64,000 nt of DNA, from positions 160,001 to 224,000 of the IMG/VR virus record IMGVR_UViG_3300048861_000178, one strand, 5' to 3'. The notes beneath the pieces were generated by a model, which was not told the origin of the DNA, did not search any database, and worked only from the letters and a program-made list of their open reading frames with translations. Source of the DNA: a virus (Duplodnaviria > Caudoviricetes). The translations under genes were made by a program, and so were the position numbers. Shown here one piece after another: positions 3,344 to 22,818 of this stretch (position 1 is the stretch's first letter; every line of letters begins with the position of its first letter).

Positions 3344-3545
3344 AGCTCCGCCGTTGGGATTGCGCCCACGCTTTATCGTCGCTGAGCTGCGTGCGCAAGA
3401 AATCGTCGATGCGATGGAGCGCTATTTCGCTGCCAAGAAAGAGATCCCTCAGGACTGGCATGACGAGCTGGCCGAGCTCAATGAGTGGCTGTCGAACAAC
3501 GGCTACACGACATTCGAGGGTTTCACCTCTGTGAAGGTAGGGTGA
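3327..3545 (+). CDS. small phage protein
   Basis: GGAG SD; PPLGLRP...R..EI..A..RY....IP..W..EL pattern recalled from other phage hypotheticals. Confidence 0.7.
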   Translation: MVAETKAPPLGLRPRFIVAELRAQEIVDAMERYFAAKKEIPQDWHDELAELNEWLSNNGYTTFEGFTSVKVG

Positions 3546-3602
3546 AAAAAAGAAAAGGATTATCTTGTGCAGTATCCTGGTAATCCTTTCCTCGAGGTCA
3601 AC

Positions 3603-3926
3603 ATGACGCAACTCGCCAGCTTGTCTCATCTGGTGTTCTTTGTGGTCTTGGCGGTAGTGGCGCTGCAATTCTCCGACGCCATCGGGCAATATGCGATTCT
3701 CAGTAAGAGCATGGAGTCCGCATCGGAATGGATGCAGAAGGCGGTTGCGAAGTTCGGTCTGGCACCGACCATCATTACGACGAAAGTCGTGATCGTGGCC
3801 GTCGTGCTGGCATTGTACTTCCTGACGTCACTGCCGCTGTGGCTGTGGTTGGCTGCCGCTGTCTATTACCTGTATAAAACTGGTCGTTGGGCGGTAGTCT
3901 GGGCGCTCTTGAAAAAGAACGTCTGA
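3603..3926 (+). CDS. membrane protein (DUF5658-like)
   Basis: GAGG SD; three hydrophobic segments. Confidence 0.7.
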   Translation: MTQLASLSHLVFFVVLAVVALQFSDAIGQYAILSKSMESASEWMQKAVAKFGLAPTIITTKVVIVAVVLALYFLTSLPLWLWLAAAVYYLYKTGRWAVVWALLKKNV

Positions 3927-3928
3927 TG

Positions 3929-3956
3929 GCAGGGGAGCTTCGGCTCCCCTGTTATG
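3929..3956 (+). terminator. hairpin (TTCG loop) followed by TATG
   Basis: GCAGGGGAGC-TTCG-GCTCCCCTGT-TATG just after a stop codon. Confidence 0.6.
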
Positions 3957-3974
3957 ATCTTGAGTAGAAAGGAA

Positions 3975-4558
3975 ATGAACGACAAAGTTAAAACGGTGGT
4001 AGAAAATGGCTACCCCGAAGAACAGACGCCTGTCTGGTGGCGGAAGTACCGACGGCACAAAGACCATGCGAAAGACCGCGGTTTAAGCACGGAACTGTCG
4101 TTTGATCAGTACGTGGGAAAAGGCAAAGAAGCAGGCCTAAAGGGTCCGGAAGAAATCGGCGTAAAGATGGGTCAGCACCACTTGAGTCGACACGGTGATG
4201 TGGGTCCCTATCGAGACAATACGTGCCGTTTCATTACCGGCAGCGAAAATTTGATGGAAGCTCATGCCAACGGACGAGACATGACGTAAGCTTACAGTTT
4301 CGCGAAGGCATTACAAAAGAAACAGATCCTCGCGTAGCTTCCATGGCGGAAAAGAAATCCAAAGACTTTGTACTCTTTGCGCCGGATGGTACTGTCCACG
4401 AAGGACGGAATCTTTATGTATTCTGTCAGGCTAACGATTTAAATACTGGCGCCGTTTCTGGCGTGTGCAGAGGTGTGCGTCCCCAGTACAAAGGTTGGAC
4501 AGGAATGTACGGTACGCTTGAGCCTGATCTCGTTGGATATTTCGACCATGACGGCTAA
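3975..4558 (+). pseudogene. frameshifted HNH homing endonuclease (HNH-like + NUMOD/HTH DNA-binding tail)
   Basis: ORF1 has LSRHGDVGPY..NTCRFIT..EN; the overlapping -1 frame has GITKETDPRVA and FC..NDLN..AVS.VC.G.RPQYKGW; removing GA at 4278-4279 gives one 193-aa ORF. Confidence 0.7.
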
Positions 4559-4603
4559 TCATCGTGTGGGCGCTGCTGAAGAAGAACGCCTAATGGCGGA
4601 CGT

Positions 4604-4633
4604 GCGGGGGCCTTCGGGTCCCCGTTTATGCTG
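4604..4633 (+). terminator. hairpin (TTCG loop) followed by TTATG
   Basis: GCGGGGGCC-TTCG-GGTCCCCGT-TTATGCTG. Confidence 0.55.
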
Positions 4634-4699
4634 TCAATCTTTTTTTGACACGATGAGGGCATCTATTGTAGGCGTGCTTTGACACTAGGATAACAAGCA

Positions 4700-5125
4700 A
4701 TGAAAAAGACCAAAATAGTAATAGCGGGGTTTATTCTCACGATTATGTTTGCCATGCTGGTGGGCATTCCGCTAGCATTCGCACGCGGTGGTGGCGGAGG
4801 CGGTCACGGGGGCGGAGGACATGCGAGTGGTCACGCCGGTGGGGAAGGGCACAGTTCAGCCCATATAGGCTCGGTGCATGAGAGCGAAGGCGGCCACAGC
4901 AGCAGTTATCACGAAGAAACCCACGTGGTACCGAACACGTATTACGTCGGACACGGCAGCAGCTATCATGACCTGTGTCCGAACGGGGTCGAGAAGACAG
5001 AAGAACAAGGGGCGAGTGACGTAAGCGTCACCTGTAAAGGGGACTCCGGCGTGGCATCCATCCTGGGGGCATTCGTTGTACTTGGAATTCTTGCAGTCGT
5101 GCTGGCTTGGCTGCTTCCCTTCTGA
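4700..5125 (+). CDS. Gly/His-rich exported membrane-anchored protein
   Basis: signal-like N-terminus ending AFA, RGGGGGGHGGGGH tract, C-terminal TM helix. Confidence 0.75.
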   Translation: MKKTKIVIAGFILTIMFAMLVGIPLAFARGGGGGGHGGGGHASGHAGGEGHSSAHIGSVHESEGGHSSSYHEETHVVPNTYYVGHGSSYHDLCPNGVEKTEEQGASDVSVTCKGDSGVASILGAFVVLGILAVVLAWLLPF

Positions 5126-12954: not shown

Positions 12955-14277
12955 TTAGCCCATGTCGGTTTGCATACCAGCGGCTTGTTGCTGCGCTGCC
13001 AGTTGCGAACCATCGGTAGCCATGCCCATCAATGCCGAACTACCGTTGCGCACGATTTCTTGCAGCGAGGCAGCATCGCCCCCGTGCTGAATGGCCTTTT
13101 GCGCCACCACCATCACGTACTTCATGATGGTCTTGCCCGAGCCAACCACGAACGAGTAGTAGTTGTTGATCAACTGAATCATCGAGACGCACTGATGCAA
13201 CGTCGAAATGATCCGATTGACTTCCTTCATGTAGATCTGCTCGATCCACTCCTCGCCCGCTTTGGCCCCGCCATGGTCGTTCATCATCGGCTCTTGATAC
13301 GCCTTCTGCCGAATCGACTCCATCTTCTTGACCGCTGAGTCGAGGGACTTGAAGACGTCGGTCAGGGCCGAACCCATCTTCTTGTAGCCTGACTGGTCGT
13401 AGATGCGCACGCCGCGCGCCATGATGCCCGAGAGATCGGTACCGAGATGGAAGTTCGGATCGAACTTCAGTTTCCGACGCGCTTCCACAGCCGTCTGGTA
13501 GCTCTCCAGGCGGATCTGCATGAGCTTGGTAGCCATGGAGGTCGCGTGCTCCAGATCGGTCTGAGCGTCCTTCTGGAAGCGTTCCAGCTTGTCCTGAAGC
13601 GCATGGGGATCAGCCCCTACGTTGTCCTGATCAAACTGACGTCCCGCAGGCAGCCACTTCTCATGCCACTTCACCAGCGTCTCGACGACACTCGCCACAT
13701 TGAAGCCATCGAGCGCCGGAATCATGCGCTGCACTGCCTGATGGTACGGACCTTCGTTGTAGATGTCCATCTCTTCCGGCGTGAGCTTGCTCACGAACGC
13801 TTCGTTCAGGCCTTCCTCGCGGACAGCCTGGATGATGGCAGTGCGTGAGCTCGGAACCCGTTCGGCTTTTTGCACCGGCATCACAAAGGACTTGAACTTC
13901 TCGTTCTCGCGAGCGAGCGCTGCTTCGGTCATGGGCTCGCCATTCACAAAGAGCTTTTGCAGCCACTTCCAGACCTTGACGATCATTTCCCACAGCAGGT
14001 CCATCGCCTTCTTCAGCAGGCTCTTGGCTTGCTCGTAGAGGCCTTCCTGAGCCACTTTGAGCTTCTGTTGCTTGCCGAGCGTGCTGTAGTAGGTATTCAC
14101 CAGGCTATTGCTACCGGTGAGGGCCTGATGTTCGAGCGCCACGTCGACTGTCAATTGACCGTCTGCTTGCAGTCGCGTGCCCAATTCACCCAGCTTATCG
14201 AGCGCATCGTTTAAGCGATTGCATTCGACGTCATCACTCAGGGTGACGATCGTCGCTTCTTGATTGACTTCTTCCAC
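12955..14277 (-). CDS. internal head (inner body/ejection) protein, phiKZ paralog-family-like
   Basis: propeptide with ALE and AQE|G followed by amphipathic KKAMDLLWEMIVKVWKWLQKLF helix. Confidence 0.75.
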   Translation of the reverse strand: MEEVNQEATIVTLSDDVECNRLNDALDKLGELGTRLQADGQLTVDVALEHQALTGSNSLVNTYYSTLGKQQKLKVAQEGLYEQAKSLLKKAMDLLWEMIVKVWKWLQKLFVNGEPMTEAALARENEKFKSFVMPVQKAERVPSSRTAIIQAVREEGLNEAFVSKLTPEEMDIYNEGPYHQAVQRMIPALDGFNVASVVETLVKWHEKWLPAGRQFDQDNVGADPHALQDKLERFQKDAQTDLEHATSMATKLMQIRLESYQTAVEARRKLKFDPNFHLGTDLSGIMARGVRIYDQSGYKKMGSALTDVFKSLDSAVKKMESIRQKAYQEPMMNDHGGAKAGEEWIEQIYMKEVNRIISTLHQCVSMIQLINNYYSFVVGSGKTIMKYVMVVAQKAIQHGGDAASLQEIVRNGSSALMGMATDGSQLAAQQQAAGMQTDMG

Positions 14278-14289
14278 GAGGGACTCCTT

Positions 14290-15525
14290 TTACTGATCGA
14301 CTTCAATGCGACGCATCGACTTCTCGACGTAGCTCAACATCACCTTCACCAGGTGATTGCTAAAAGCCGTCGGCAGGAAAGTCGTGTCGTGCTGCATGAT
14401 GAGTTGGCCCCAGGCATACAGACGCGAAGCGAGTGTCTGGTCTTCGCGCGACAGCGACTTGAAGTTGCGATAGCGATACGCGAACTCGTCCAGCGCGTCC
14501 AGATAACGATCGATGATGCGACCATCGAAGGTCATGGAAGCCAGATGCGCTTCGATCTTTTCACAGATGTCGAGCACTTGCTTCATCTGGGCCTTGGTCA
14601 ACGCCGGGAATTCACCCCCGCCGACAGCCTTCATCGACTTCATGCGCTGGATTTCAACAATCCCGCCCGGTGCGTGGTTGTCTTCTTCTTGCGAGATCTC
14701 AAAGACGCACCACTGACCCAGGAAGAACGGCGAATGCTTGTCGATGTACTCCTTGCCCTTGAACTGGACCGGCTTGTTAACCGTGAGCCACTTTTCGGCG
14801 CCTTGCGGACGCGTGACTTCCCACATCTTCTTCAGATTCTCGTTGGCCTTCTTCAGGTCCGTCTCGCCGAGCTTCCAGATCTGGTCCGCCACGAACTTGT
14901 AGCCGTCGAGCCAGGCTTTATCCAGATTGCCCGACCATTGCACGAGCTCGTAGACGCGTTGCAGTTCACGAATCAGTCGCGCCGGGTCGGTGATGTGTTT
15001 GCCGTCGATCGAGAGCCACTTGGCGTACCTGCTGATCGTGACGGTGTCCGCATCGCGGGTGACTTCACCCGCGCGCACTTGCAGCTTGGTGCGCAGGCGC
15101 GCAATCGCTTCGAGGTTCTCTTTGGTGGCTGTGTGGCCATCTTCGAGTTCCTTCTCGCGATGCATGAAGAAGTCCTTGACGTTCTCGAACTTCTTGCTGA
15201 TCCAGCCTTCCTGGGCGATGTTCTGCGCGTTGATCGCATCGTGCTCAGCACTGCCTTCCGACTGCGGCTCAAAGGCGCGACGGTCTTGCTCGATCAGGAC
15301 GACATCATCCAGATCCACCGGACGCGTGTCGATCTTCTCAGTGCCTTCAGTAGCGACGTTTTCCGTATCGGGCACCGGATTCTGACCGGGCTTGGCCATA
15401 CCAGAGAGCGTCGTGGTGTCGCCGTCGATCTGGCCTGCGTCCGGCGCAGGCTTGGCGGTGTCTTCCAGATCTTGGTCTTCGATCGGGCGCGCTTCGAGCG
15501 CGGCGCGCATGTTAAAGGATTTCAT
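14290..15525 (-). CDS. internal head protein with acidic propeptide
   Basis: ALE, ATE and AQE|GW sites in an acidic N-terminus. Confidence 0.7.
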   Translation of the reverse strand: MKSFNMRAALEARPIEDQDLEDTAKPAPDAGQIDGDTTTLSGMAKPGQNPVPDTENVATEGTEKIDTRPVDLDDVVLIEQDRRAFEPQSEGSAEHDAINAQNIAQEGWISKKFENVKDFFMHREKELEDGHTATKENLEAIARLRTKLQVRAGEVTRDADTVTISRYAKWLSIDGKHITDPARLIRELQRVYELVQWSGNLDKAWLDGYKFVADQIWKLGETDLKKANENLKKMWEVTRPQGAEKWLTVNKPVQFKGKEYIDKHSPFFLGQWCVFEISQEEDNHAPGGIVEIQRMKSMKAVGGGEFPALTKAQMKQVLDICEKIEAHLASMTFDGRIIDRYLDALDEFAYRYRNFKSLSREDQTLASRLYAWGQLIMQHDTTFLPTAFSNHLVKVMLSYVEKSMRRIEVDQ

Positions 15526-15587
15526 GTTGGTCCAATGTGAAAAGGATTAACCCTTGACGGCAAGGGATAGGCTGGTTTTCTTATTTC

Positions 15588-16328
15588 TTACCACTGCTGA
15601 TGGGGTGGAGGATCTTTGAATCCCAAGAGGTCGGCCGCTGCGTTCTTGGCGGAGAGGTAGTCGTCCTTGTCGATGGGAGTGACCACATAGCCGCTATCGT
15701 CTTTCCAGCTGGCGACATTTTCCTGCACGGGTCCAACCACGCGGTAGTAGCCGGGATTGAGGAAGTGGGACTTACTAAAACGAAGCCCGTCTTCTTTTGT
15801 AACTTCCACATACAGCTCCATCTCCCCGGCAGGCTTCTTGCCTGAGCGACCGATCAGGCGCAGCGACCGGTAGAACATCTTACCTGCTGCTTGCGGGATG
15901 TACTCGTTGGTTTCCCGTGAGTACGACACCAGCCAGTGCTCGTCGCTTGCTTGCGCGTCGTACACCATGCGTGCATTCGGTTTTAAGGCTGCCTCGAAAG
16001 GGAGCGCGTAAATCTTCCAACCGCCTTTGTAGTTACCGTGTTCGGGTTTACCCGTGGAATGGTACTCGCGAAAGTCATGGTCGGCCTTCGCGTAGCCGAT
16101 CAAGCACCCCAGCAGCGTCGGGGCCACCGTTACGCGCGGGACAGTACGATCCTCGCTATAAGCCTGACGGCGCCCAATTAACGGGATAAACTTCTTGATG
16201 TTCGTGGCCGTAGAAATGTGCAGGCAGAAGTCTTGCTTGACTTCTGTCGGGGTCACAATCGTCACGTTCTTACGAACTTTTTCGGGCACAGTCTCGAGCC
16301 ATTGTGCCAGCTCGTCGGTTTGGCTCAT
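15588..16328 (-). CDS. putative virion protein with ADP-ribosyltransferase-like motifs
   Basis: LHIS...F.P.I...ED.TVPRVTVAPTL.GCL...VYDA..SDEHWL; ORF is clear, the ART call is tentative. Confidence 0.55.
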   Translation of the reverse strand: MSQTDELAQWLETVPEKVRKNVTIVTPTEVKQDFCLHISTATNIKKFIPLIGRRQAYSEDRTVPRVTVAPTLLGCLIGYAKADHDFREYHSTGKPEHGNYKGGWKIYALPFEAALKPNARMVYDAQASDEHWLVSYSRETNEYIPQAAGKMFYRSLRLIGRSGKKPAGEMELYVEVTKEDGLRFSKSHFLNPGYYRVVGPVQENVASWKDDSGYVVTPIDKDDYLSAKNAAADLLGFKDPPPHQQW

Positions 16329-16390
16329 AGTGGGACCAATAAAGGGTTTGAGAGAAGTTCTATAAGATTCAGCACGAGGCGATAAAACTA

Positions 16391-16437
16391 CGGCATAAGA
16401 GGGAGCGAGCCCTCTCGAGCCGCTCCCTCCGCATGCG
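16391..16437 (-). terminator. hairpin of the CATA/TATG family
   Basis: CGGCATAA-GAGGGAGCG...CGCTCCCTC. Confidence 0.55.
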
Positions 16438-16451
16438 TTAACTGCTGAATG

Positions 16452-18431
16452 TTACTTGCCTTTCTTCTGATGCCAGGCGATGAAGCGATCGACCATGATG
16501 GCAATGAATGCCTTCAGATCCGGTGCGACCACATAGCGACCATCGTCGTCGTGTGCGAAGGCCACGATCTGACCCTTCTTGCCCTTCGGACCAGGCTTCA
16601 TGTCCACACCGAAGAAGTCACCCGAACCCGACTCCGTGAATGCCAGCCATTTGCGGTTGCAGAATTCCGACGCATCGAGCTTGCCGTCATCATCGTCCTT
16701 GCCTGCGGGCAGGTGACCGCTGTCTTGCATCGCCACGTCGTGCGCATGTGCCTTGATAATCTCTTGGCACGCGAGCAACGTATCACCATTCAACCAACCC
16801 GGACCCTTCACTTGACCGTTGCAAAGCGAGTAAAGCTCATGGAACTCGGCAGGCAGGCGTTCGCCGAATGCCTTCTCGACTGCGGCGATTTGTTTCGGAT
16901 CAGCCGGACGGAACTGCAGGTCGATGCCGTGCTGCTGAGCATACGTCGTCAGCTTACCGAGACTTTCCTTAATCGAAGCATGGGAGACCGGGACTTCTTG
17001 CTTTTTGCCGAAGAACTCCAGGGCCATGGACTCCTGGGCAATTGACTCCATCGCCGCTGACTTCGCCGCCTTCAGCGCAGCTTCGAGCAAGTAGCAGTGG
17101 AACTTCGCTGCCCGCACCGCGCGATGCGCTTCGTGGCTACCCGGCGCAACCACCGAGTCGGAGAAGTTCTGCACCACCATCAGGATCTGATCGTAGAGTG
17201 CAGCACGGCGCGTCACGTCACCCGTACCCGAAGTCTGCCAGCTGATTTCCACGGCATCTTCGTCCGCTTCATCACCGAGCGTGATCGAGTAGTCCGTCAG
17301 ATCGAAGTCATTCCAGATCATCTCGAGCGATTCGTCGATGCGATGAAAGATCGGCCAGCTATTATGGTAGTTATCCATGTAGCTGCGCGCACCTTCCAGG
17401 TACGTCTGACCGGCCTTGATCAGGTTCTCCAGATCGTTCTCGGTCAAGCGCACGTTGGCCTTGCTGCCGTTCACGAAGAGCTTCTTCATGCCGTGCAAGA
17501 ACGAGCCGTACTCGCGCACATGGAACGGCATCGCCATCTTGGCGAGCTTTTCCATCGACACGCCACCGATCGCTACAGGCCGCGGCACGCGACCTTGGTT
17601 GGCGTAGATACCGGTCACCGACAGATAGGGCTGCTCACCCGAGACACACATCCACTTGTGGTCCAGGTACATCGAGGGAGCTTCGAGCTTTTCGAGGTCC
17701 AGTGCCGTGCGCTTGGCTTCTTCGTCGGAGTTACCTTGGCCGGTATGCAGCGCTGACTCCAGCTTGCGCAACTGAGCCATCGCTTCCTTGGAGAAGTCAC
17801 CGAGGATATAGCTCGAGAACGCCAAGTCCTCCTGCACCTTGTGCATGAAGTTGTTGTGAATCGGACCGGCGTCGTTGGAGAAGTGCTGCCACAGCCCCGA
17901 GAGATTCACATCGAGCGGCCCACGGACGATCGTGCCATTGAGTTCCTGCTGCAGCTCAGCGAGGCGGGCCTCGTACTTCTTGATGAGACCCGGCATGGTG
18001 CGCCAGCCATCCTTCCAGCCCTCGAACATCTTCTTAAAGCGCCCGTGCAGCTTGTTCTTAGCCACTGCCAGCTTGTTGCTGTCCTTGGCTTCGAGCGACA
18101 CTTCATTGCCGTCATCCCACACCGACGTCGCCGCCGTTGCCGACTTGATCAGCGCGTCGAACTCATCGTCGTCCACCACGATGGCGTCAGCTTCCAGCGC
18201 CGAGCGGATCGGAAAGCTCGGCTTGAGCATGGCGGCCGCTGCGCGCTCACGGAACTTCTCCGCTGCGTAGTTCTCCGAACCACTGAAGGGCGATTCGTTG
18301 TAGCCTGCGGTGATGAGGGGCTGTTCCGGGGTTTCACCCTGCATCATCGGCTGAACATTGCCCGTGGGGGACGAGTCGAAGGATTCCATACCCAGAGCAG
18401 CGATGCTCTCCAGGCTCATGCGTCTTTTCAT
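16452..18431 (-). CDS. internal head protein fused to a C-terminal SMI1/KNR4 (SUKH) domain
   Basis: N-terminal SLE/GME/ALE/SLE sites; AME-AQE-ALE cluster then PA....I...E...G..LP.EF..LY..CNGQ...W..F...GSGDF..VD..PG..G..GQIV...HD. Confidence 0.8.
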   Translation of the reverse strand: MKRRMSLESIAALGMESFDSSPTGNVQPMMQGETPEQPLITAGYNESPFSGSENYAAEKFRERAAAAMLKPSFPIRSALEADAIVVDDDEFDALIKSATAATSVWDDGNEVSLEAKDSNKLAVAKNKLHGRFKKMFEGWKDGWRTMPGLIKKYEARLAELQQELNGTIVRGPLDVNLSGLWQHFSNDAGPIHNNFMHKVQEDLAFSSYILGDFSKEAMAQLRKLESALHTGQGNSDEEAKRTALDLEKLEAPSMYLDHKWMCVSGEQPYLSVTGIYANQGRVPRPVAIGGVSMEKLAKMAMPFHVREYGSFLHGMKKLFVNGSKANVRLTENDLENLIKAGQTYLEGARSYMDNYHNSWPIFHRIDESLEMIWNDFDLTDYSITLGDEADEDAVEISWQTSGTGDVTRRAALYDQILMVVQNFSDSVVAPGSHEAHRAVRAAKFHCYLLEAALKAAKSAAMESIAQESMALEFFGKKQEVPVSHASIKESLGKLTTYAQQHGIDLQFRPADPKQIAAVEKAFGERLPAEFHELYSLCNGQVKGPGWLNGDTLLACQEIIKAHAHDVAMQDSGHLPAGKDDDDGKLDASEFCNRKWLAFTESGSGDFFGVDMKPGPKGKKGQIVAFAHDDDGRYVVAPDLKAFIAIMVDRFIAWHQKKGK

Positions 18432-18433
18432 GG

Positions 18434-18988
18434 TTATTTCTCGAGAATGGTGAACTTGATAACTGCGGGCGGAAACATGATGACTTCTTTTTGTGTTTCC
18501 GGACGAATATTGCGAAGCTGGGAGACGAGCACCGAGAGTTCGTCCGTGATGACAAGACCCAATTCCTTAGAAGGGTCCACTACCGTTCGGATCACCGTCG
18601 AACCAAAAGCTTGGGCGATCGAGAGCTCCGTACTAAAAGAGAGCGGATTCTCGAGCACGTAGTCATGTCGCTGTCCGATAGCGTAGTTCTTGGGCATGCC
18701 CATGATGTCTTGATACGTACTCGACGGATCAAAGCCTCGGTAAAGCGGCATCTCGCGGAACTTGTAAAGGTCGTTGACAATCTTGGCCAAAGCACGCAAC
18801 GAGGGCAGGAGCGTCTTGTCCGGATGCAAGATCCAACGATCGAGCTGCTTGAGCAACTCAGTGTGCTGGGAGAGCGCTGCGAGCTTATCGTGATCGATCT
18901 GGGTAAAGTCAATCACCTGGGCACCGTCCTTGAGCGCTTTCCAGAACGCCCACTCCATCGCAGGCGTGCGTTTTGCTATGAAATGCAT
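18434..18988 (-). CDS. ADP-ribosyltransferase, R-S-E class
   Basis: LYRGF, LSFST..SIA.AF, QKEVI catalytic motifs; N-terminal AME site. Confidence 0.75.
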   Translation of the reverse strand: MHFIAKRTPAMEWAFWKALKDGAQVIDFTQIDHDKLAALSQHTELLKQLDRWILHPDKTLLPSLRALAKIVNDLYKFREMPLYRGFDPSSTYQDIMGMPKNYAIGQRHDYVLENPLSFSTELSIAQAFGSTVIRTVVDPSKELGLVITDELSVLVSQLRNIRPETQKEVIMFPPAVIKFTILEK

Positions 18989-18995
18989 ACCTGCC

Positions 18996-21089
18996 TCACA
19001 CGTTGGACCACGACATCCAGTTGGGTTGAACGATGATACTGCCAGTCTCGACCTTCTCGGCGTCGCCTTCGGTACCCCCGTCGTTAAACGTTTCCATCGC
19101 CAGCTCGTACCGATCGGCCTTCTGTTGCAGGCTGTAGGCTTCCAGCGCCAGATCCAGCCCTGCGCTACTCGTGCCCATGATCGAATCGACCATTTCCCGC
19201 GACCAGTTCAAGATGTCATTCGAACGCGTCGAGATGTTCGGCACACCCTTGGTATCCAGAAACACATTCCAGATCGTGCAGGGGAACTTCTGACCAATCC
19301 GATCGATCCGTGCAATCGCCTGCTTGTACTCGTAGTCCCGAAACGGCGCGTTCAGGTTGATCATGGTCGAGGCGGAGAGCACCGGCACAGCGGTCGACAA
19401 GGAATCGAAGGTCGCAATCAGCGGGTTCAGATCCTCGTCCTCATCAAAGCGCTTGATGATGCCCTTCAGGTCCTTGTTGGTCTCGCCGTAGACGAGCAAG
19501 GGCTGGTAGCCTTCCTTCTGCAGATACTCATCCGCGGCTTTGACCACGTTCACGTAGGACGTGAAGATCAGCGTCTTGGACATCGAGCCATCAATGAGCT
19601 CCGGCATCCCCACGTACGGCAACATGTCAACGTGACACTGCGCGCGCAGCTTACCCAAAATCCGCCCCAAGGCTTCGCCCTGGACTTTCAAGTCCATGTA
19701 CTTCACCACCGAGCGCGCATCCAGGAACGAGATCTTTAGATCCCGTGGCAAACTCGGAGCGATCTTCTGCTTCTCGAACTTGTTACAGAACATCACCATG
19801 TCCTTCATCGTCTTCGGGTCGTACCCTTGGATGATCTGGCTGATGTAGCCCTGGTACTTCTTGTACTCGTTCCTGGCAGGACCATCACGCAGCGTGCGCT
19901 CGTAGATCCCGCAGGCCGTGTAGTAGATGTTCTGGAAGCCCTTGAAGTTTGCCTGGTAGTAGGCCATGCGCTCGGTAATGAACGCCTTCATGACGTCCTT
20001 CACCGCGTCAAGCGTATAGACGCCTCCATTGGGCATCTCGACGTTCTTCTGGATCTCCTTGCGGTTGTTATCCACCACGTTGTCGACCTTGTACATCATC
20101 TGTCCAAGGCGGTTACGCAGGATATCATTCGCGCGCACGGAGTTCTTACCGAAGATCTCCTTAAAGCGCAACTGGGCGTCCTGATTGAAGTCCGTACACA
20201 GCACCGTGAGAATCGGAATTGCCTCAGCCCCGATGGCTTTCATCGGTGTACCTGACATCGGCAACACATGCTGGCAGTCAATCACCTTGCACAGATCGAT
20301 CCACAGGTTCGTACGCAGGCTATCGAGCTCATTCAGGTTGTGGGACTCGTCCACGATCATGAACGGCTTACGCAGCTTGTGCTGGTGTTGCTTGAAGAAC
20401 TCGATCGCCTTCGGGAGCTGCTCGTAGTGGAACACGTAGTGGCGATAGCCCCACTCAAGCGGCTTACCGGAAAGCGTGGTCCAGTACTTGTGGTTCTCTG
20501 GCTTCTTAAAGAGCGCGCGCAGCGTCTTGTCCCACACCTCATCTACCGCGGGCTTCGGTACCAGCTCGATAAACACATCGGCATTCAGTACACAGCCAAG
20601 CGCAATCGAGTTAATCGTCTTACCCGAGCCAGGGGCGGCTGCCAGTACGTAGCCTTTCAACTTCATGCGTGGCACCATCTCGTTATAGAGCTGGAGGAAC
20701 TCTGCCTGATGGGGGAGCAGGTTCACATTCAGTTCATCGAGTTGGCTGAAATCCAGAATGGCCGGGTGCGAGGTTTCCCGCACACTCTTGAGCCAGGTGT
20801 TCTCGTACATCAGGTCGACGATCTTTTGCAGCGCACGGTTGTTATAGTTACGGCTACGCAGCTTGATGATCGTCTCGAAGGTGTAGACGATGTCAGGGGC
20901 AAAGAACTTGTTGAACGAAACGCTTGAGCGTCCCATCTTGGTGAACATGAACATCGCGATCTTGCTGGTAGACCAGATTTTCGTGATGTCGCGGGCAATC
21001 ACATCGGCAGGCAAGCCTTCGATATGGATGAGTTTTTCATCCTCGAAGACGTCGATGGAGCCGATTAGGCGTTTAAAACCGGAAAACAT
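18996..21089 (-). CDS. SNF2/SF2 helicase (phiKZ gp203-like virion helicase)
   Basis: AAPGSGKT, IVDESHN, SGTP, QAIARIDRIGQ; C-terminal ALE/AME sites; start taken at MFSGFK. Confidence 0.9.
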   Translation of the reverse strand: MFSGFKRLIGSIDVFEDEKLIHIEGLPADVIARDITKIWSTSKIAMFMFTKMGRSSVSFNKFFAPDIVYTFETIIKLRSRNYNNRALQKIVDLMYENTWLKSVRETSHPAILDFSQLDELNVNLLPHQAEFLQLYNEMVPRMKLKGYVLAAAPGSGKTINSIALGCVLNADVFIELVPKPAVDEVWDKTLRALFKKPENHKYWTTLSGKPLEWGYRHYVFHYEQLPKAIEFFKQHQHKLRKPFMIVDESHNLNELDSLRTNLWIDLCKVIDCQHVLPMSGTPMKAIGAEAIPILTVLCTDFNQDAQLRFKEIFGKNSVRANDILRNRLGQMMYKVDNVVDNNRKEIQKNVEMPNGGVYTLDAVKDVMKAFITERMAYYQANFKGFQNIYYTACGIYERTLRDGPARNEYKKYQGYISQIIQGYDPKTMKDMVMFCNKFEKQKIAPSLPRDLKISFLDARSVVKYMDLKVQGEALGRILGKLRAQCHVDMLPYVGMPELIDGSMSKTLIFTSYVNVVKAADEYLQKEGYQPLLVYGETNKDLKGIIKRFDEDEDLNPLIATFDSLSTAVPVLSASTMINLNAPFRDYEYKQAIARIDRIGQKFPCTIWNVFLDTKGVPNISTRSNDILNWSREMVDSIMGTSSAGLDLALEAYSLQQKADRYELAMETFNDGGTEGDAEKVETGSIIVQPNWMSWSNV

Positions 21090-21264
21090 TCGCACCCCTG
21101 AGAGTCGGTGTATAGTTAGCGGACCAAAAATGGATTCATAACTATTTCGGCTCGATTCTTTTACTGGCATTGAAGCGGCATAAAAGGCTAGGGCAACACC
21201 TGGGCTGGTCAGGCCCAAGTGTCACACCTAGCGGTACTACAGGGGAGGTACTACAAGGAAACAG

Positions 21265-22818
21265 TTAGAGTTGCAAAGGGTCATCGAGCGCTGCAAACCA
21301 CGGCGTTTCATCAGTACTACCAATCGGACCGCCACCCACCTTACGGCGCGTCGTGTCCGGCCCGTTCAGATCGTCCAGAATACCCCCAACCGGCTGGAAG
21401 GGCAGCACACAGTACTGATCAATCAACGGGGTCTGTCCCACAATCCGGTGCTTACCACGCTGCACCGTGAGCCAGGACTGGCCATTCACGATTTCAATGT
21501 GAATGTAGAGCTCCAGATCCACTTCCTGGTCAATCTGACGGCTACCTGCGTAGTAGCCCTTGTTCGCGATTTCCTTCACGAAGTCGGTCTTACCGTCACG
21601 CACCAATTGCTTGGCCTCGGTGGAGAGCTGGTGCGGCGTGATAAAGGTGATCTTGCGCGGGTTGGTGAAGTTACGCATGCGACGGAACATGTCGCGCACG
21701 TCGTGACCGGCCGGGCCTTGTGAGCAACCGGTGGTCGGCACCATGTACAGGTAGTCGACGATGAGCGCATGGATTTCGTAGCCGTCCGCTTCGTACTCGA
21801 TGAGCTTGTTGCAGATGTCCATGTACGACCACTTGGTCGGGTCCACCCGCAGCATGTCAATGTGATAACCATTGACCCCCATCTTCTCCTTCACGTACGC
21901 CGCAATCTCTTGCGGATCGGCCCCTTCGAGTTCCTTATCGGTTACCGCGACGCCGGTCTCGTTTTCCTTGAGCGACGTATAAAGGAAGCGCATGTTGTTG
22001 TTGATGTCGTCCTCAAACGAGATCCGCAACAGCAAGGGCTTCTTGGTCGGATCAATCATCTCCGGCACATTGTAGAGCGCCAGGTGTTTGAAGATCGACA
22101 GCGTAAAGCCCGTTTTGTACTTGTGCTGCAACGCGCCGATCACCACCTGCTCGCCACGGCGGAAGCCGCCGCGCAGCATGCGGTTAATGCCCTGCCAGCC
22201 GGTACGCAGAATCGAGTTACCGTTGGACTCTTGCTGAATGTCCTTAAACACTTCGGCCATCGAGTCCAGGTTGCTAAACGAGACGTGTGAGACAATCGCC
22301 GGATCTTTGGTGACGGCGTCTTGCTGATAGGGTTCCAGCTCGGCACACACCTCAGCGACGAATTGCTTCATGTCCGTGATGTTCTCACGGTTGAACTTCA
22401 CCGCGACGCCTGCGCGGTGCAAGATCTCTTTGACCTTCTCTTCGCGGAAGTAATTCTGCAACGTACGGCGAATGTTCAGGCAGGTACGCTTCAGCGAGCC
22501 TTCTTGCAGCTCCGAGCTAATACCTTGTTCAAACGCTTCATACATCGCTTGGTCTTCCCCACAGACCACCTTCATGCGCTGCATGATTTCGAGCGGCTCG
22601 TACTGATGGTCCTGGGGCGTGTCGCACATTGCCAGTGCGCAGCTCTTCAGACCCGCGAGCGTCTCGGTTTCGGGATCAAGCGTGAGGTTCACCTCAGGCA
22701 TCTTGATGGTGGACACAATGTTGCGCACCAGATTCTGGCTACGCTCCATCGTCGGTGGCAATTGACTTTCGCGGTAAAGCAGGGTGATTGCATTCACCAA
22801 AAGGAGTCGGTTATTCAT
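21265..22818 (-). CDS. dnaB: DnaB-like replicative helicase (phiKZ gp118-like)
   Basis: TGWQGINRML.GGFRRGE, variant Walker A GALQHKYKT, IVDYL, TPHQLS, QEVDLE, RGKHR. Confidence 0.9.
   Translation of the reverse strand: MNNRLLLVNAITLLYRESQLPPTMERSQNLVRNIVSTIKMPEVNLTLDPETETLAGLKSCALAMCDTPQDHQYEPLEIMQRMKVVCGEDQAMYEAFEQGISSELQEGSLKRTCLNIRRTLQNYFREEKVKEILHRAGVAVKFNRENITDMKQFVAEVCAELEPYQQDAVTKDPAIVSHVSFSNLDSMAEVFKDIQQESNGNSILRTGWQGINRMLRGGFRRGEQVVIGALQHKYKTGFTLSIFKHLALYNVPEMIDPTKKPLLLRISFEDDINNNMRFLYTSLKENETGVAVTDKELEGADPQEIAAYVKEKMGVNGYHIDMLRVDPTKWSYMDICNKLIEYEADGYEIHALIVDYLYMVPTTGCSQGPAGHDVRDMFRRMRNFTNPRKITFITPHQLSTEAKQLVRDGKTDFVKEIANKGYYAGSRQIDQEVDLELYIHIEIVNGQSWLTVQRGKHRIVGQTPLIDQYCVLPFQPVGGILDDLNGPDTTRRKVGGGPIGSTDETPWFAALDDPLQL

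Follow-up and report, generated by a model that had tools for sequence, protein, structure and literature searches.

The question raised by this locus is whether a small enzyme encoded by an uncultured jumbo phage could be carried in the virus particle and delivered into the host together with the genome, and what it would modify there. The locus lies in a stretch of 64,000 nucleotides (the window; bases 160001-224000 of the 315,190-bp IMG/VR record IMGVR_UViG_3300048861_000178, with a completeness estimate of 98%), and the gene under study is predicted to encode an ADP-ribosyltransferase (ART) of 184 amino acids. Jumbo phages that form a nucleus supply an RNA polymerase of their own and keep their DNA hidden, and little is known of what their other injected proteins do early in infection. 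The phage that bears this gene is an uncultured 315-kb phiKZ-like (chimallivirus-type) jumbo phage: the window holds a phiKZ-type major capsid protein gene (phrog_3231, 6.8e-193), the genome (56% GC) also has genes for internal head proteins of phiKZ type and for a gp149-type subunit of the virion RNA polymerase, and Burkholderia phage FLC9 is its closest cultured phage. The assignment of the 184-residue protein to the R-S-E clade of ARTs, with a Q-x-E motif, is well supported by the predicted fold and by conservation, and we estimate a probability of roughly 0.5 that the enzyme is both active and packaged.

The ART gene and its predicted active site

The ART gene occupies positions 18434..18988 on the minus strand (184 codons and a TAA stop), and the open reading frame (ORF) that had been flagged in a preliminary description of this DNA, with its LYRG, SFST and QKE motifs, was confirmed there. 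A GAGG ribosome-binding site (18994..18997, minus strand), read directly in the sequence, is located 5 nucleotides (nt) ahead of the ATG and shares bases with the TGA stop (18996-18998) of the helicase gene upstream, the gap between both genes being 7 nt. M1 was taken as the start because of this site and because residues 1-12, which give the N-terminus MHFIAKRTPAME, are conserved in relatives; for the same reasons a GTG or TTG start and a start at M11 were rejected. The ratio of nonsynonymous to synonymous substitution rates (dN/dS) of the gene was 0.115 against its nearest relative (a 313-kb IMG/VR contig), and therefore points to purifying selection. In addition, its GC content at third codon positions is 0.665 and exceeds those at first and second positions, which is the pattern of genuine genes in a 56% GC genome, and an antisense ORF (18491-19036) was rejected as coding since its codon-position GC does not fit.

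An AlphaFold2 model built from the homologue alignment had high overall confidence (predicted local distance difference test, pLDDT, 93.2; predicted template-modelling score, pTM, 0.87), with a pLDDT of 55 over residues 1-10, and presented an N-terminal helical bundle followed by a split beta-sandwich. When this model was compared exhaustively with 48,161 Protein Data Bank (PDB) representatives, all 18 representatives with a Z of at least 5 were ARTs, with matches spanning model residues 22-184. The top ones (Z 7.1-7.5, 125-134 aligned residues) were 8za7_B, a Listeria ART effector, and C2-I, Vis, Tre1, VIP2, CPILE-a, Certhrax and C3bot2; ExoS, HopU1, ART2.2, C3stau2, SpvB, XopAI, diphtheria toxin and C3larvin came next. 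The best Foldseek list (ART2.2, C3bot, Tre1, CDTa and ExoS/T) was of the same kind, the closest ESM Atlas cluster was DraT (TM 0.60), and a search of BFVD returned first the uncharacterised members of the family itself and then viral ARTs. ARTs thus dominate these lists and an ART fold was predicted, as the preliminary description had anticipated; on the other side, the scores of the fold matches reach only a moderate level (Z<8; Foldseek E ~0.03). That description had also called the enzyme minimal, which holds as a relative term, given that solved ARTs of 128-180 residues appear among the fold matches.

At the sequence level, a word search over 5.8 billion proteins gave 10 relatives, and an exhaustive HMMER search gave 119 cluster representatives, which mostly have ~180 amino acids; an E<=1e-10 was reached by 74. 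No functional name was found in the sources searched for any of these ~119 clusters, and PHROGs places the ART in phrog_29772, 'unknown function'. Conservation was counted in an alignment of 88 homologous sequences with 25-85% identity to the query and a mean column identity of 28%. Besides the start methionine, only R84, G85 and E168 are invariant (88/88 each), while S117 (85/88), E150 (86/88), W52 (84/88), A125 and G129 are near-invariant and position 119 is S or T in 87/88. The LYRG, SFST and QKE motifs are therefore more than chance, since they are conserved across strongly diverged homologues.

These motifs fall where the fold predicts them. LYRG (residues 82-85; 18734..18745, minus strand) lies on beta1 (model strand 80-86) and contains R84, the predicted arginine that binds nicotinamide adenine dinucleotide (NAD+). 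SFST (residues 117-120; 18629..18640, minus strand) is an S-T-S-type motif on beta2 (model strand 116-119, followed by a helix at 122-128), and QKE (residues 166-168; 18485..18493, minus strand) is found at the start of beta5, with E168 opening the model strand 168-171. Solved R-S-E enzymes suggest by analogy that NAD+ would be held by R84 and the S117-x-S/T-T motif, that E168 as the predicted catalytic glutamate would stabilise the oxocarbenium intermediate and catalyse the transfer, and that Q166, two residues before it, is a putative acceptor-specificity position that would help to select the acceptor. The invariance of R84 and E168 and the near-invariance of S117 across 88 diverged sequences indicate that the active site is under selection, and we consider the ART very probably active as an enzyme. 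The same evidence bears on the idea of a catalytically dead ART-fold protein with a structural or internal role in the head: pseudo-enzymes are, as a general point, common in phage head contents, but an invariant R84 and E168, an almost invariant S117 and a dN/dS of 0.115 make such a role highly improbable.

Profile comparisons gave weak matches in the same direction as the fold. The Pfam DraT match of the ART (PF07357) is below threshold (E 0.005, 16.4 bits against a gathering cut-off of 25 bits) and spans only profile positions 168-226 of 256; weak DraT matches were also obtained for 31 of the 88 members (best E 1.7e-4), covering the arginine and S-T-S region. A PDB profile search aligned the YRG and S-F-T-T segments with the arginine and S-T-S motif of 2kxi, which we take to be the meningococcal ART NarE, and of the SidE mART domain, with LYRG of the ART aligned to LYRG of 2kxi and to LFRG of SidE; the E values were non-significant. 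Together with the fold and the conserved residues, these weak matches bear out the R-S-E assignment that had been proposed. No ADPrib_exo_Tox or Alt-type Pfam match was obtained for the ART or for the 88 members, and a single-sequence search of PDB sequences with the ART gave no match at E<=10. All close relatives that were found came from viral contigs of jumbo size; bacterial species genomes yielded none, a weak negative because the scan used a single peptide pattern. Judged by sequence, the ART would thus belong to an unnamed family whose close relatives are restricted to jumbo-phage contigs. A 326-kb relative, which carries the homologue P0008, also has a second, diverged paralogue of the family (27% identity; L017:12081-12473) in the same cluster, between the homologues of the phrog_5043 and 411-residue genes that are described below for the window.

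Packaging and injection

Within a co-oriented run of genes on the minus strand the ART gene comes third, and a SNF2/ResIII helicase gene lies directly upstream (18996..21218, minus strand; Pfam and PHROG matches, tblastn). This helicase is the orthologue of phiKZ gp203, 201phi2-1 gp300 and RAY gp131 and a core gene, with tblastn matches in 204 phiKZ-like phage records; the name 'gp203' in papers on SPN3US, Goslar, S13 and 201phi2-1 follows the gene numbering of each phage and was rejected as a reference to it. The phiKZ, 201phi2-1 and RAY helicases are virion proteins identified by mass spectrometry, which are proteolytically processed, packaged and co-pellet with DNA, and RAY gp131 localises with capsids (bioRxiv 10.1101/2023.02.24.529968). 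The position of the ART gene directly behind the gene of a packaged helicase suggests that the ART too is probably in the virus particle. Furthermore, the order helicase-then-ART is kept in relatives with 85%, 58%, 54% and 48% ART identity, and in a relative with 41% identity the order is DnaB, ART, helicase, with the ART upstream of the helicase in the same block.

Relatives of the ART domain are also fused to virion proteins. In P0028, DUF5662, a GNAT domain and the ART domain precede the N-terminus of a phrog_62 helicase (gp203 type), and in P0095, P0104, P0105 and P0128, DUF5662 and the ART domain are followed by a C-terminal gp149-type virion polymerase subunit, the 201phi2-1 orthologue of which is a virion protein confirmed by mass spectrometry. 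P0095 and P0128 were confirmed on independent contigs (L009:8001-10907 and L011:8001-10223 listed) and translate under table 11. A further fusion, P0088, joins the ART domain to a SUKH domain and is encoded near an S80 protease gene. Each border of the ART domain had a [SAG]-x-E motif of prohead-protease type no more than 30 residues away in 5/9 fusions, against 1.4 expected (permutation p ~0.005), as in P0028, where S-T-E occurs at 931 and 1120 around an ART domain at 932-1112. Inside the ART domain of the nine fusions the motif was depleted (0.0056 versus 0.0148 per residue). Because the ART is repeatedly linked to the packaged helicase and the virion polymerase subunit, our data suggest that these two proteins serve as carriers of swappable enzyme cargo. 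We also observed DUF5662 (PF18907 / phrog_3921) repeatedly as the N-terminal domain of the long ART chains, which are metagenomic proteins; P0105 has it twice and holds ~1,400 residues of unassigned modules between ART and gp149.

The free-standing ART begins with a candidate capsid-targeting or propeptide leader, codons 1-12 (18953..18988, minus strand; MHFIAKRTPAME), ending in A-M-E12, a site of prohead-protease type. The leader noted in the preliminary description is thus present, and its length changes from 11 to 12 amino acids, since the S/A/G-x-E rule puts the cut after E12. In relatives it reads TPA[ML]E, TPSLE or LALE and is conserved down to 46% identity; leader-like N-termini occur in more diverged members as well, and a [SAG]-x-E, often ALE-S/G, precedes the domain in 23 of the 44 members with at least 16 preceding residues. 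The ejection proteins gp53/54 of SPN3US carry AXE-12, and in phiKZ the cleavage of gp93 takes place at SLE-13 (PMC5694885), positions that A-M-E12 resembles. Neighbouring genes begin with MKRRMSLE and MKSFNMRAALE, and the paralogues of the internal head proteins have SLE at 24-27. Additionally, the genome encodes an S80 prohead protease (main copy at genome 254209-254814, outside the window) and a second, diverged S80 paralogue (L028, genome 71526-71957, also outside the window; E 2.6e-14), the same two-paralogue arrangement that has been reported for SPN3US (PMC5694885). By analogy with these systems, the ART may be cleaved after A-M-E12.

In the mechanism that we propose, the ART would be made alongside the head proteins from the co-oriented run that it shares with the virion helicase, and its short basic N-terminal leader would load it into the prohead, where the S80 protease would trim it after A-M-E12. 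Leaving the particle along with the DNA, the helicase and the RNA polymerase of the virion, it would then ADP-ribosylate a macromolecule of the host during the first minutes of infection.

Several observations weigh against this. The homologues BONAISHI ORF48, pEa_SNUABM_54 gp27 and Eowyn 267 lack an N-terminal [SAG]-x-E, and these genes of cultured phages have small accessory genes as neighbours and are not near the helicase; as they have no leader, packaging, if real, may be clade-specific. A [SAG]-x-E is found in the first 25 residues of 16% of the predicted proteins of the genome, a background rate that makes a single A-x-E weak evidence, and E12 is located at the start of a predicted helix (residues 9-21). 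The linkers of the fusions are rich in S, A, G and E, and the enrichment at the junctions may be partly compositional; the fusion and motif counts come from related family members and are not independent, so that kinship inflates them. The run also holds a replicative DnaB-like gene, and co-orientation is therefore no proof of late or head-type expression. Lastly, in FLC9 the helicase gene is directly followed by that of gp96, a protein with two SUKH domains, and no ART is detectable anywhere in that phage, which makes the ART an optional insert in the module and the SUKH protein independent of it.

The same observations lend themselves to a different explanation, in which an active ART is made in the infected cell and, unpackaged, acts on host or phage proteins in the cytoplasm or the phage nucleus in the manner of T4 ModA and ModB, the A-x-E being fortuitous or used otherwise. 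That the run begins with the DnaB-like replicative helicase gene, that the BONAISHI, pEa_SNUABM_54, RP12 and Eowyn homologues are placed among small accessory genes and mostly have no leader motif, and that N-terminal [SAG]-x-E has such a background would all agree with it. Nevertheless, the 7-nt coupling to the gene of a gp203-type virion helicase, the fusions within the family, which involve two different virion proteins and have protease motifs where the parts meet, and a leader that is conserved to 46% identity and has similar counterparts in more diverged members speak against a purely intracellular enzyme, and we regard this explanation as possible but rather doubtful. The proposal that the ART is injected, made in the preliminary description, therefore stands in part: the virion-helicase operon, the virion-protein fusions, the protease motifs at their joints, the A-x-E-12 and the S80 protease support it, the cultured homologues without a leader do not, and on balance we put packaging and injection at even odds or slightly better.

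Acceptor and relation to known ADP-ribosyltransferases

ARTs with an E-x-E motif modify arginine, and among those with Q-x-E the C3 enzymes modify asparagine, and scabin and pierisin modify guanine. Q166 of the ART is kept in 73/88 homologues and replaced by E in 5/88; in the polymerase-fused clade R or other residues occur at this position. The Q212/E214 ARTT motif of C3 is named in the titles of matched structure entries. In the ART, the residues before Q-x-E (159-165, R-N-I-R-P-E-T; consensus R-N-x-x-P-E-T) include no aromatic. A non-arginine acceptor is hinted at by the Q-x-E motif and can be proposed tentatively, at somewhat less than even odds. A protein acceptor is favoured because the predicted fold is nearer to the protein-modifying C2, C3 and VIP2 enzymes (Z ~7.4) than to scabin (Z 4.5 over 96 residues) and because Q166 is not invariant; a non-arginine residue of a protein is plausible.

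It is also conceivable, and in our view improbable, that the Q-x-E site ADP-ribosylates nucleic acid or a co-injected phage protein and not host arginine. The ART would in this case come in attached to the genome as it is ejected, accompanied by the gp203 helicase and by the RNA polymerase of the virion, and would mark or block host DNA or RNA, or switch the virion polymerase, at the vesicle stage that precedes the phage nucleus. If true, this would be a new mechanism of nucleus-forming phages in the first minute of infection. A different use of NAD+ would be its hydrolysis, with the ART depleting NAD+ or destroying NAD-derived defence signals as a glycohydrolase. Some ART-fold proteins are NADases or NAD+ phosphorylases (PMC9503650), and the NADase toxin Tne2 was a weak fold match (Z 3.1); however, the best fold matches are protein-modifying transferases, and the conserved Q/E-x-E, the ARTT-like loop and the near-invariant E150 suggest acceptor recognition, which makes this reading very unlikely.

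Returning to an ART that is packaged and modifies a macromolecule, the closest parallel is T4 Alt, another phage-encoded R-S-E ART. Alt has a size of ~70 kDa and an E-x-E motif, whereas the ART described here has 184 residues and Q-x-E. Alt is loaded into the prohead via a short N-terminal propeptide, which the prohead protease removes, and is injected with the DNA (PMC9503650; PMC5694885). The 12-residue leader of the ART, ending in a protease-type motif, and its place in a virion-protein operon resemble this arrangement, and by analogy it may be packaged likewise. The proteases differ, that of T4 (gp21) cutting at L/I-x-E and the phiKZ S80 type at S/A/G-x-E, and the ART gave no Pfam match to the Alt/VIP2 family, while its fold matches VIP2 with Z 7.4. 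As this phage brings its own RNA polymerase, the target logic of Alt, directed at the host RNA polymerase's alpha subunit, need not hold. The ART may work like Alt in outline, and its sequence would place it outside the Pfam families of Alt/VIP2, Mod and DraT.

DraT is both the nearest sequence family to the ART, below threshold, and the nearest ESM Atlas cluster. It differs from the ART in length, the DraT cluster representative (282 amino acids) being ~100 residues longer, and in context, since DraT belongs to nitrogen fixation and the ART to a phage, in whose 315-kb genome no match to a DraG-type ADP-ribosyl glycohydrolase (PF03747) was found. C3 and C2-I/VIP2/iota enzymes share with it the helical N-terminal subdomain, the arginine on beta1, the S-T-S on beta2 and Q/E-x-E at beta5 (Z 6.6-7.5 over ~130 residues), and the C3 enzymes also the Q-x-E itself, with an identity to the ART of 9-16% for this whole group. 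Unlike C3 and C2, the ART is a protein of a Gram-negative-type jumbo phage without secretion signal or binding component. C3 enzymes carry an aromatic residue in ARTT turn 1, and judged by its position before Q-x-E the loop of the ART (159-165) would lack a counterpart.

The long multi-domain chains in which relatives of the ART occur also recall the polyvalent proteins, as far as these are described where PMC9503650 cites Iyer, Burroughs, Anand, de Souza and Aravind (2017). The theme of that work, as cited there, is injected multi-effector proteins, and the partners in our chains are GNAT, DUF5662, the SNF2 helicase and the virion RNA polymerase subunit. With respect to the theme as cited, the ART of the window differs in being a free-standing operon gene, and the carriers in the fusions are virion components of chimalliviruses.

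ARTs have been reported in >40% of jumbo phages, and ~44% of phage ARTs are in contexts that suggest packaging in the head (PMC9503650). Cargo of the T4 Alt kind is thus already known and the ART probably adds a member to it, so that the advance is incremental unless the target is unusual, because ARTs of jumbo phages are common and packaged ARTs a textbook theme (PMC9503650). No characterised ART of a phiKZ-like phage was found in the literature searched. In this regard, the family of ~119 clusters offers a small, easily expressed candidate for an early effector, and its acceptor, once identified, would show what process of the host or the phage it modifies.

The SUKH neighbour and the surrounding genes

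The gene downstream of the ART (16452..18431, minus strand) starts 2 nt after the ART stop and encodes a 659-residue protein whose N-terminus is predicted to be disordered and whose middle domain is conserved, with a SUKH (SMI1/KNR4) domain on the C-terminal side at residues 509-644 (16500..16907, minus strand; Pfam SMI1_KNR4 7.5e-20). AlphaFold2 modelled the protein with low confidence (pLDDT 60.5), residues 1-120 being disordered. The N-terminus of this family is conserved though predicted to be disordered (SLES..., then an invariant E-S-F-D ... P-x-G-N-V ... Y-A-A-E), a conserved S-A-A-M-E-S stands just before the variable linker to SUKH, and in FLC9 gp96 and three other relatives a second SUKH domain is inserted after approximately residue 60 of the homologue.

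SUKH domains are reportedly typical immunity proteins of polymorphic toxin systems. The ART and the SUKH protein could accordingly be a pair similar to a toxin and its immunity protein, in which SUKH would bind the ART and keep it silent for as long as it is not needed, whether packaged or not, for example for protection of the producer cell or for superinfection exclusion. The distance of 2 nt between both genes, the conservation of their adjacency in relatives at 54-85% identity and the presence of both domains in one chain in P0088 favour such a pair. P0088 had no similarity to the 659-residue protein outside the Pfam SUKH domain, and a complex prediction for the ART with SUKH residues 490-659 returned 'no answer' (score 0.00), which bears neither way. 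In contrast, FLC9 has a SUKH protein behind the helicase and no detectable ART, in more distant relatives the 659-residue protein is represented by its middle domain and SUKH is missing, and most members of the ART family have no SUKH neighbour, and we find a pair of this kind unlikely. Tre1/Tri1 and related pairs (6dre/6drh, 8za7) are comparable in that a small R-S-E ART (Z 7.4-7.5) has an adjacent partner gene, here one that encodes an immunity-type SUKH domain. The partners in the matched entries are ARH-type hydrolases or 'immunity' proteins and not SUKH, no association with a secretion system was seen for the ART of the window, and FLC9 again has the SUKH protein without the ART.

The run on the minus strand begins with the divergent DnaB-like helicase gene (21265..22818; PF20307 1.9e-132), followed by the SNF2/ResIII helicase, the ART and the SUKH protein, and continues with genes for a phrog_5043 protein and a protein of 411 residues. 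A 440-residue protein of the same run (12955..14277, minus strand) has a weak match to the internal head proteins of phiKZ (PF12699, E=8e-4, below cut-off; E=3.9e-5 in the genome scan). When positions 14290-18988 of the window and the adjoining genes were compared with the nearest relative (L030), the DnaB-like and SNF2/ResIII helicase genes were 97-99.6% identical, with a synonymous substitution rate (dS) of 0.26-0.31, and the genes of the ART, the SUKH protein, the phrog_5043 protein and the 411-residue protein were 76-85% identical, with a dS of 0.70-1.27. The stretch from the ART to the 411-residue gene is a mosaic, faster-turning segment, typical of accessory and host-interaction genes. 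The virion proteins encoded downstream of the helicase in 201phi2-1, gp299 and gp298, had no BLASTP similarity to the ART or the 659-residue protein, and their correspondence is therefore one of positional analogy and not of homology. A sigma-70 promoter and terminator scan, with phiKZ-type promoters outside its scope, gave no minus-strand terminators in 12-24 kb.

Two adjacent Macro-domain genes (L025:1274-1603 and L026:796-1125; genome 796-1603, at the left end and outside the window) lie 177 kb from the ART. They may be tied to defence against DarT-type toxins; a DarG2-like Macro antitoxin has been described in a chimallivirus (PMC13309987).

With respect to the helicase gene upstream of the ART, its TTG start is doubtful: orthologues are annotated with 680-682 amino acids, the alignment with FLC9 begins at residue 24, and the true start may be internal. 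We also observed that in two IMG/VR relatives (L031:1812-4985 and L033:1812-4985) the gp203-type helicase gene is split after approximately residue 201 by ~1,040 bp, with blastx pieces at 1812-2378 and 3417-4985, and that the helicase matches of PhiPA3 and BRkr are likewise in two pieces that span ~3 kb. An intron, an intein or the insertion of a homing endonuclease could account for such an interruption.

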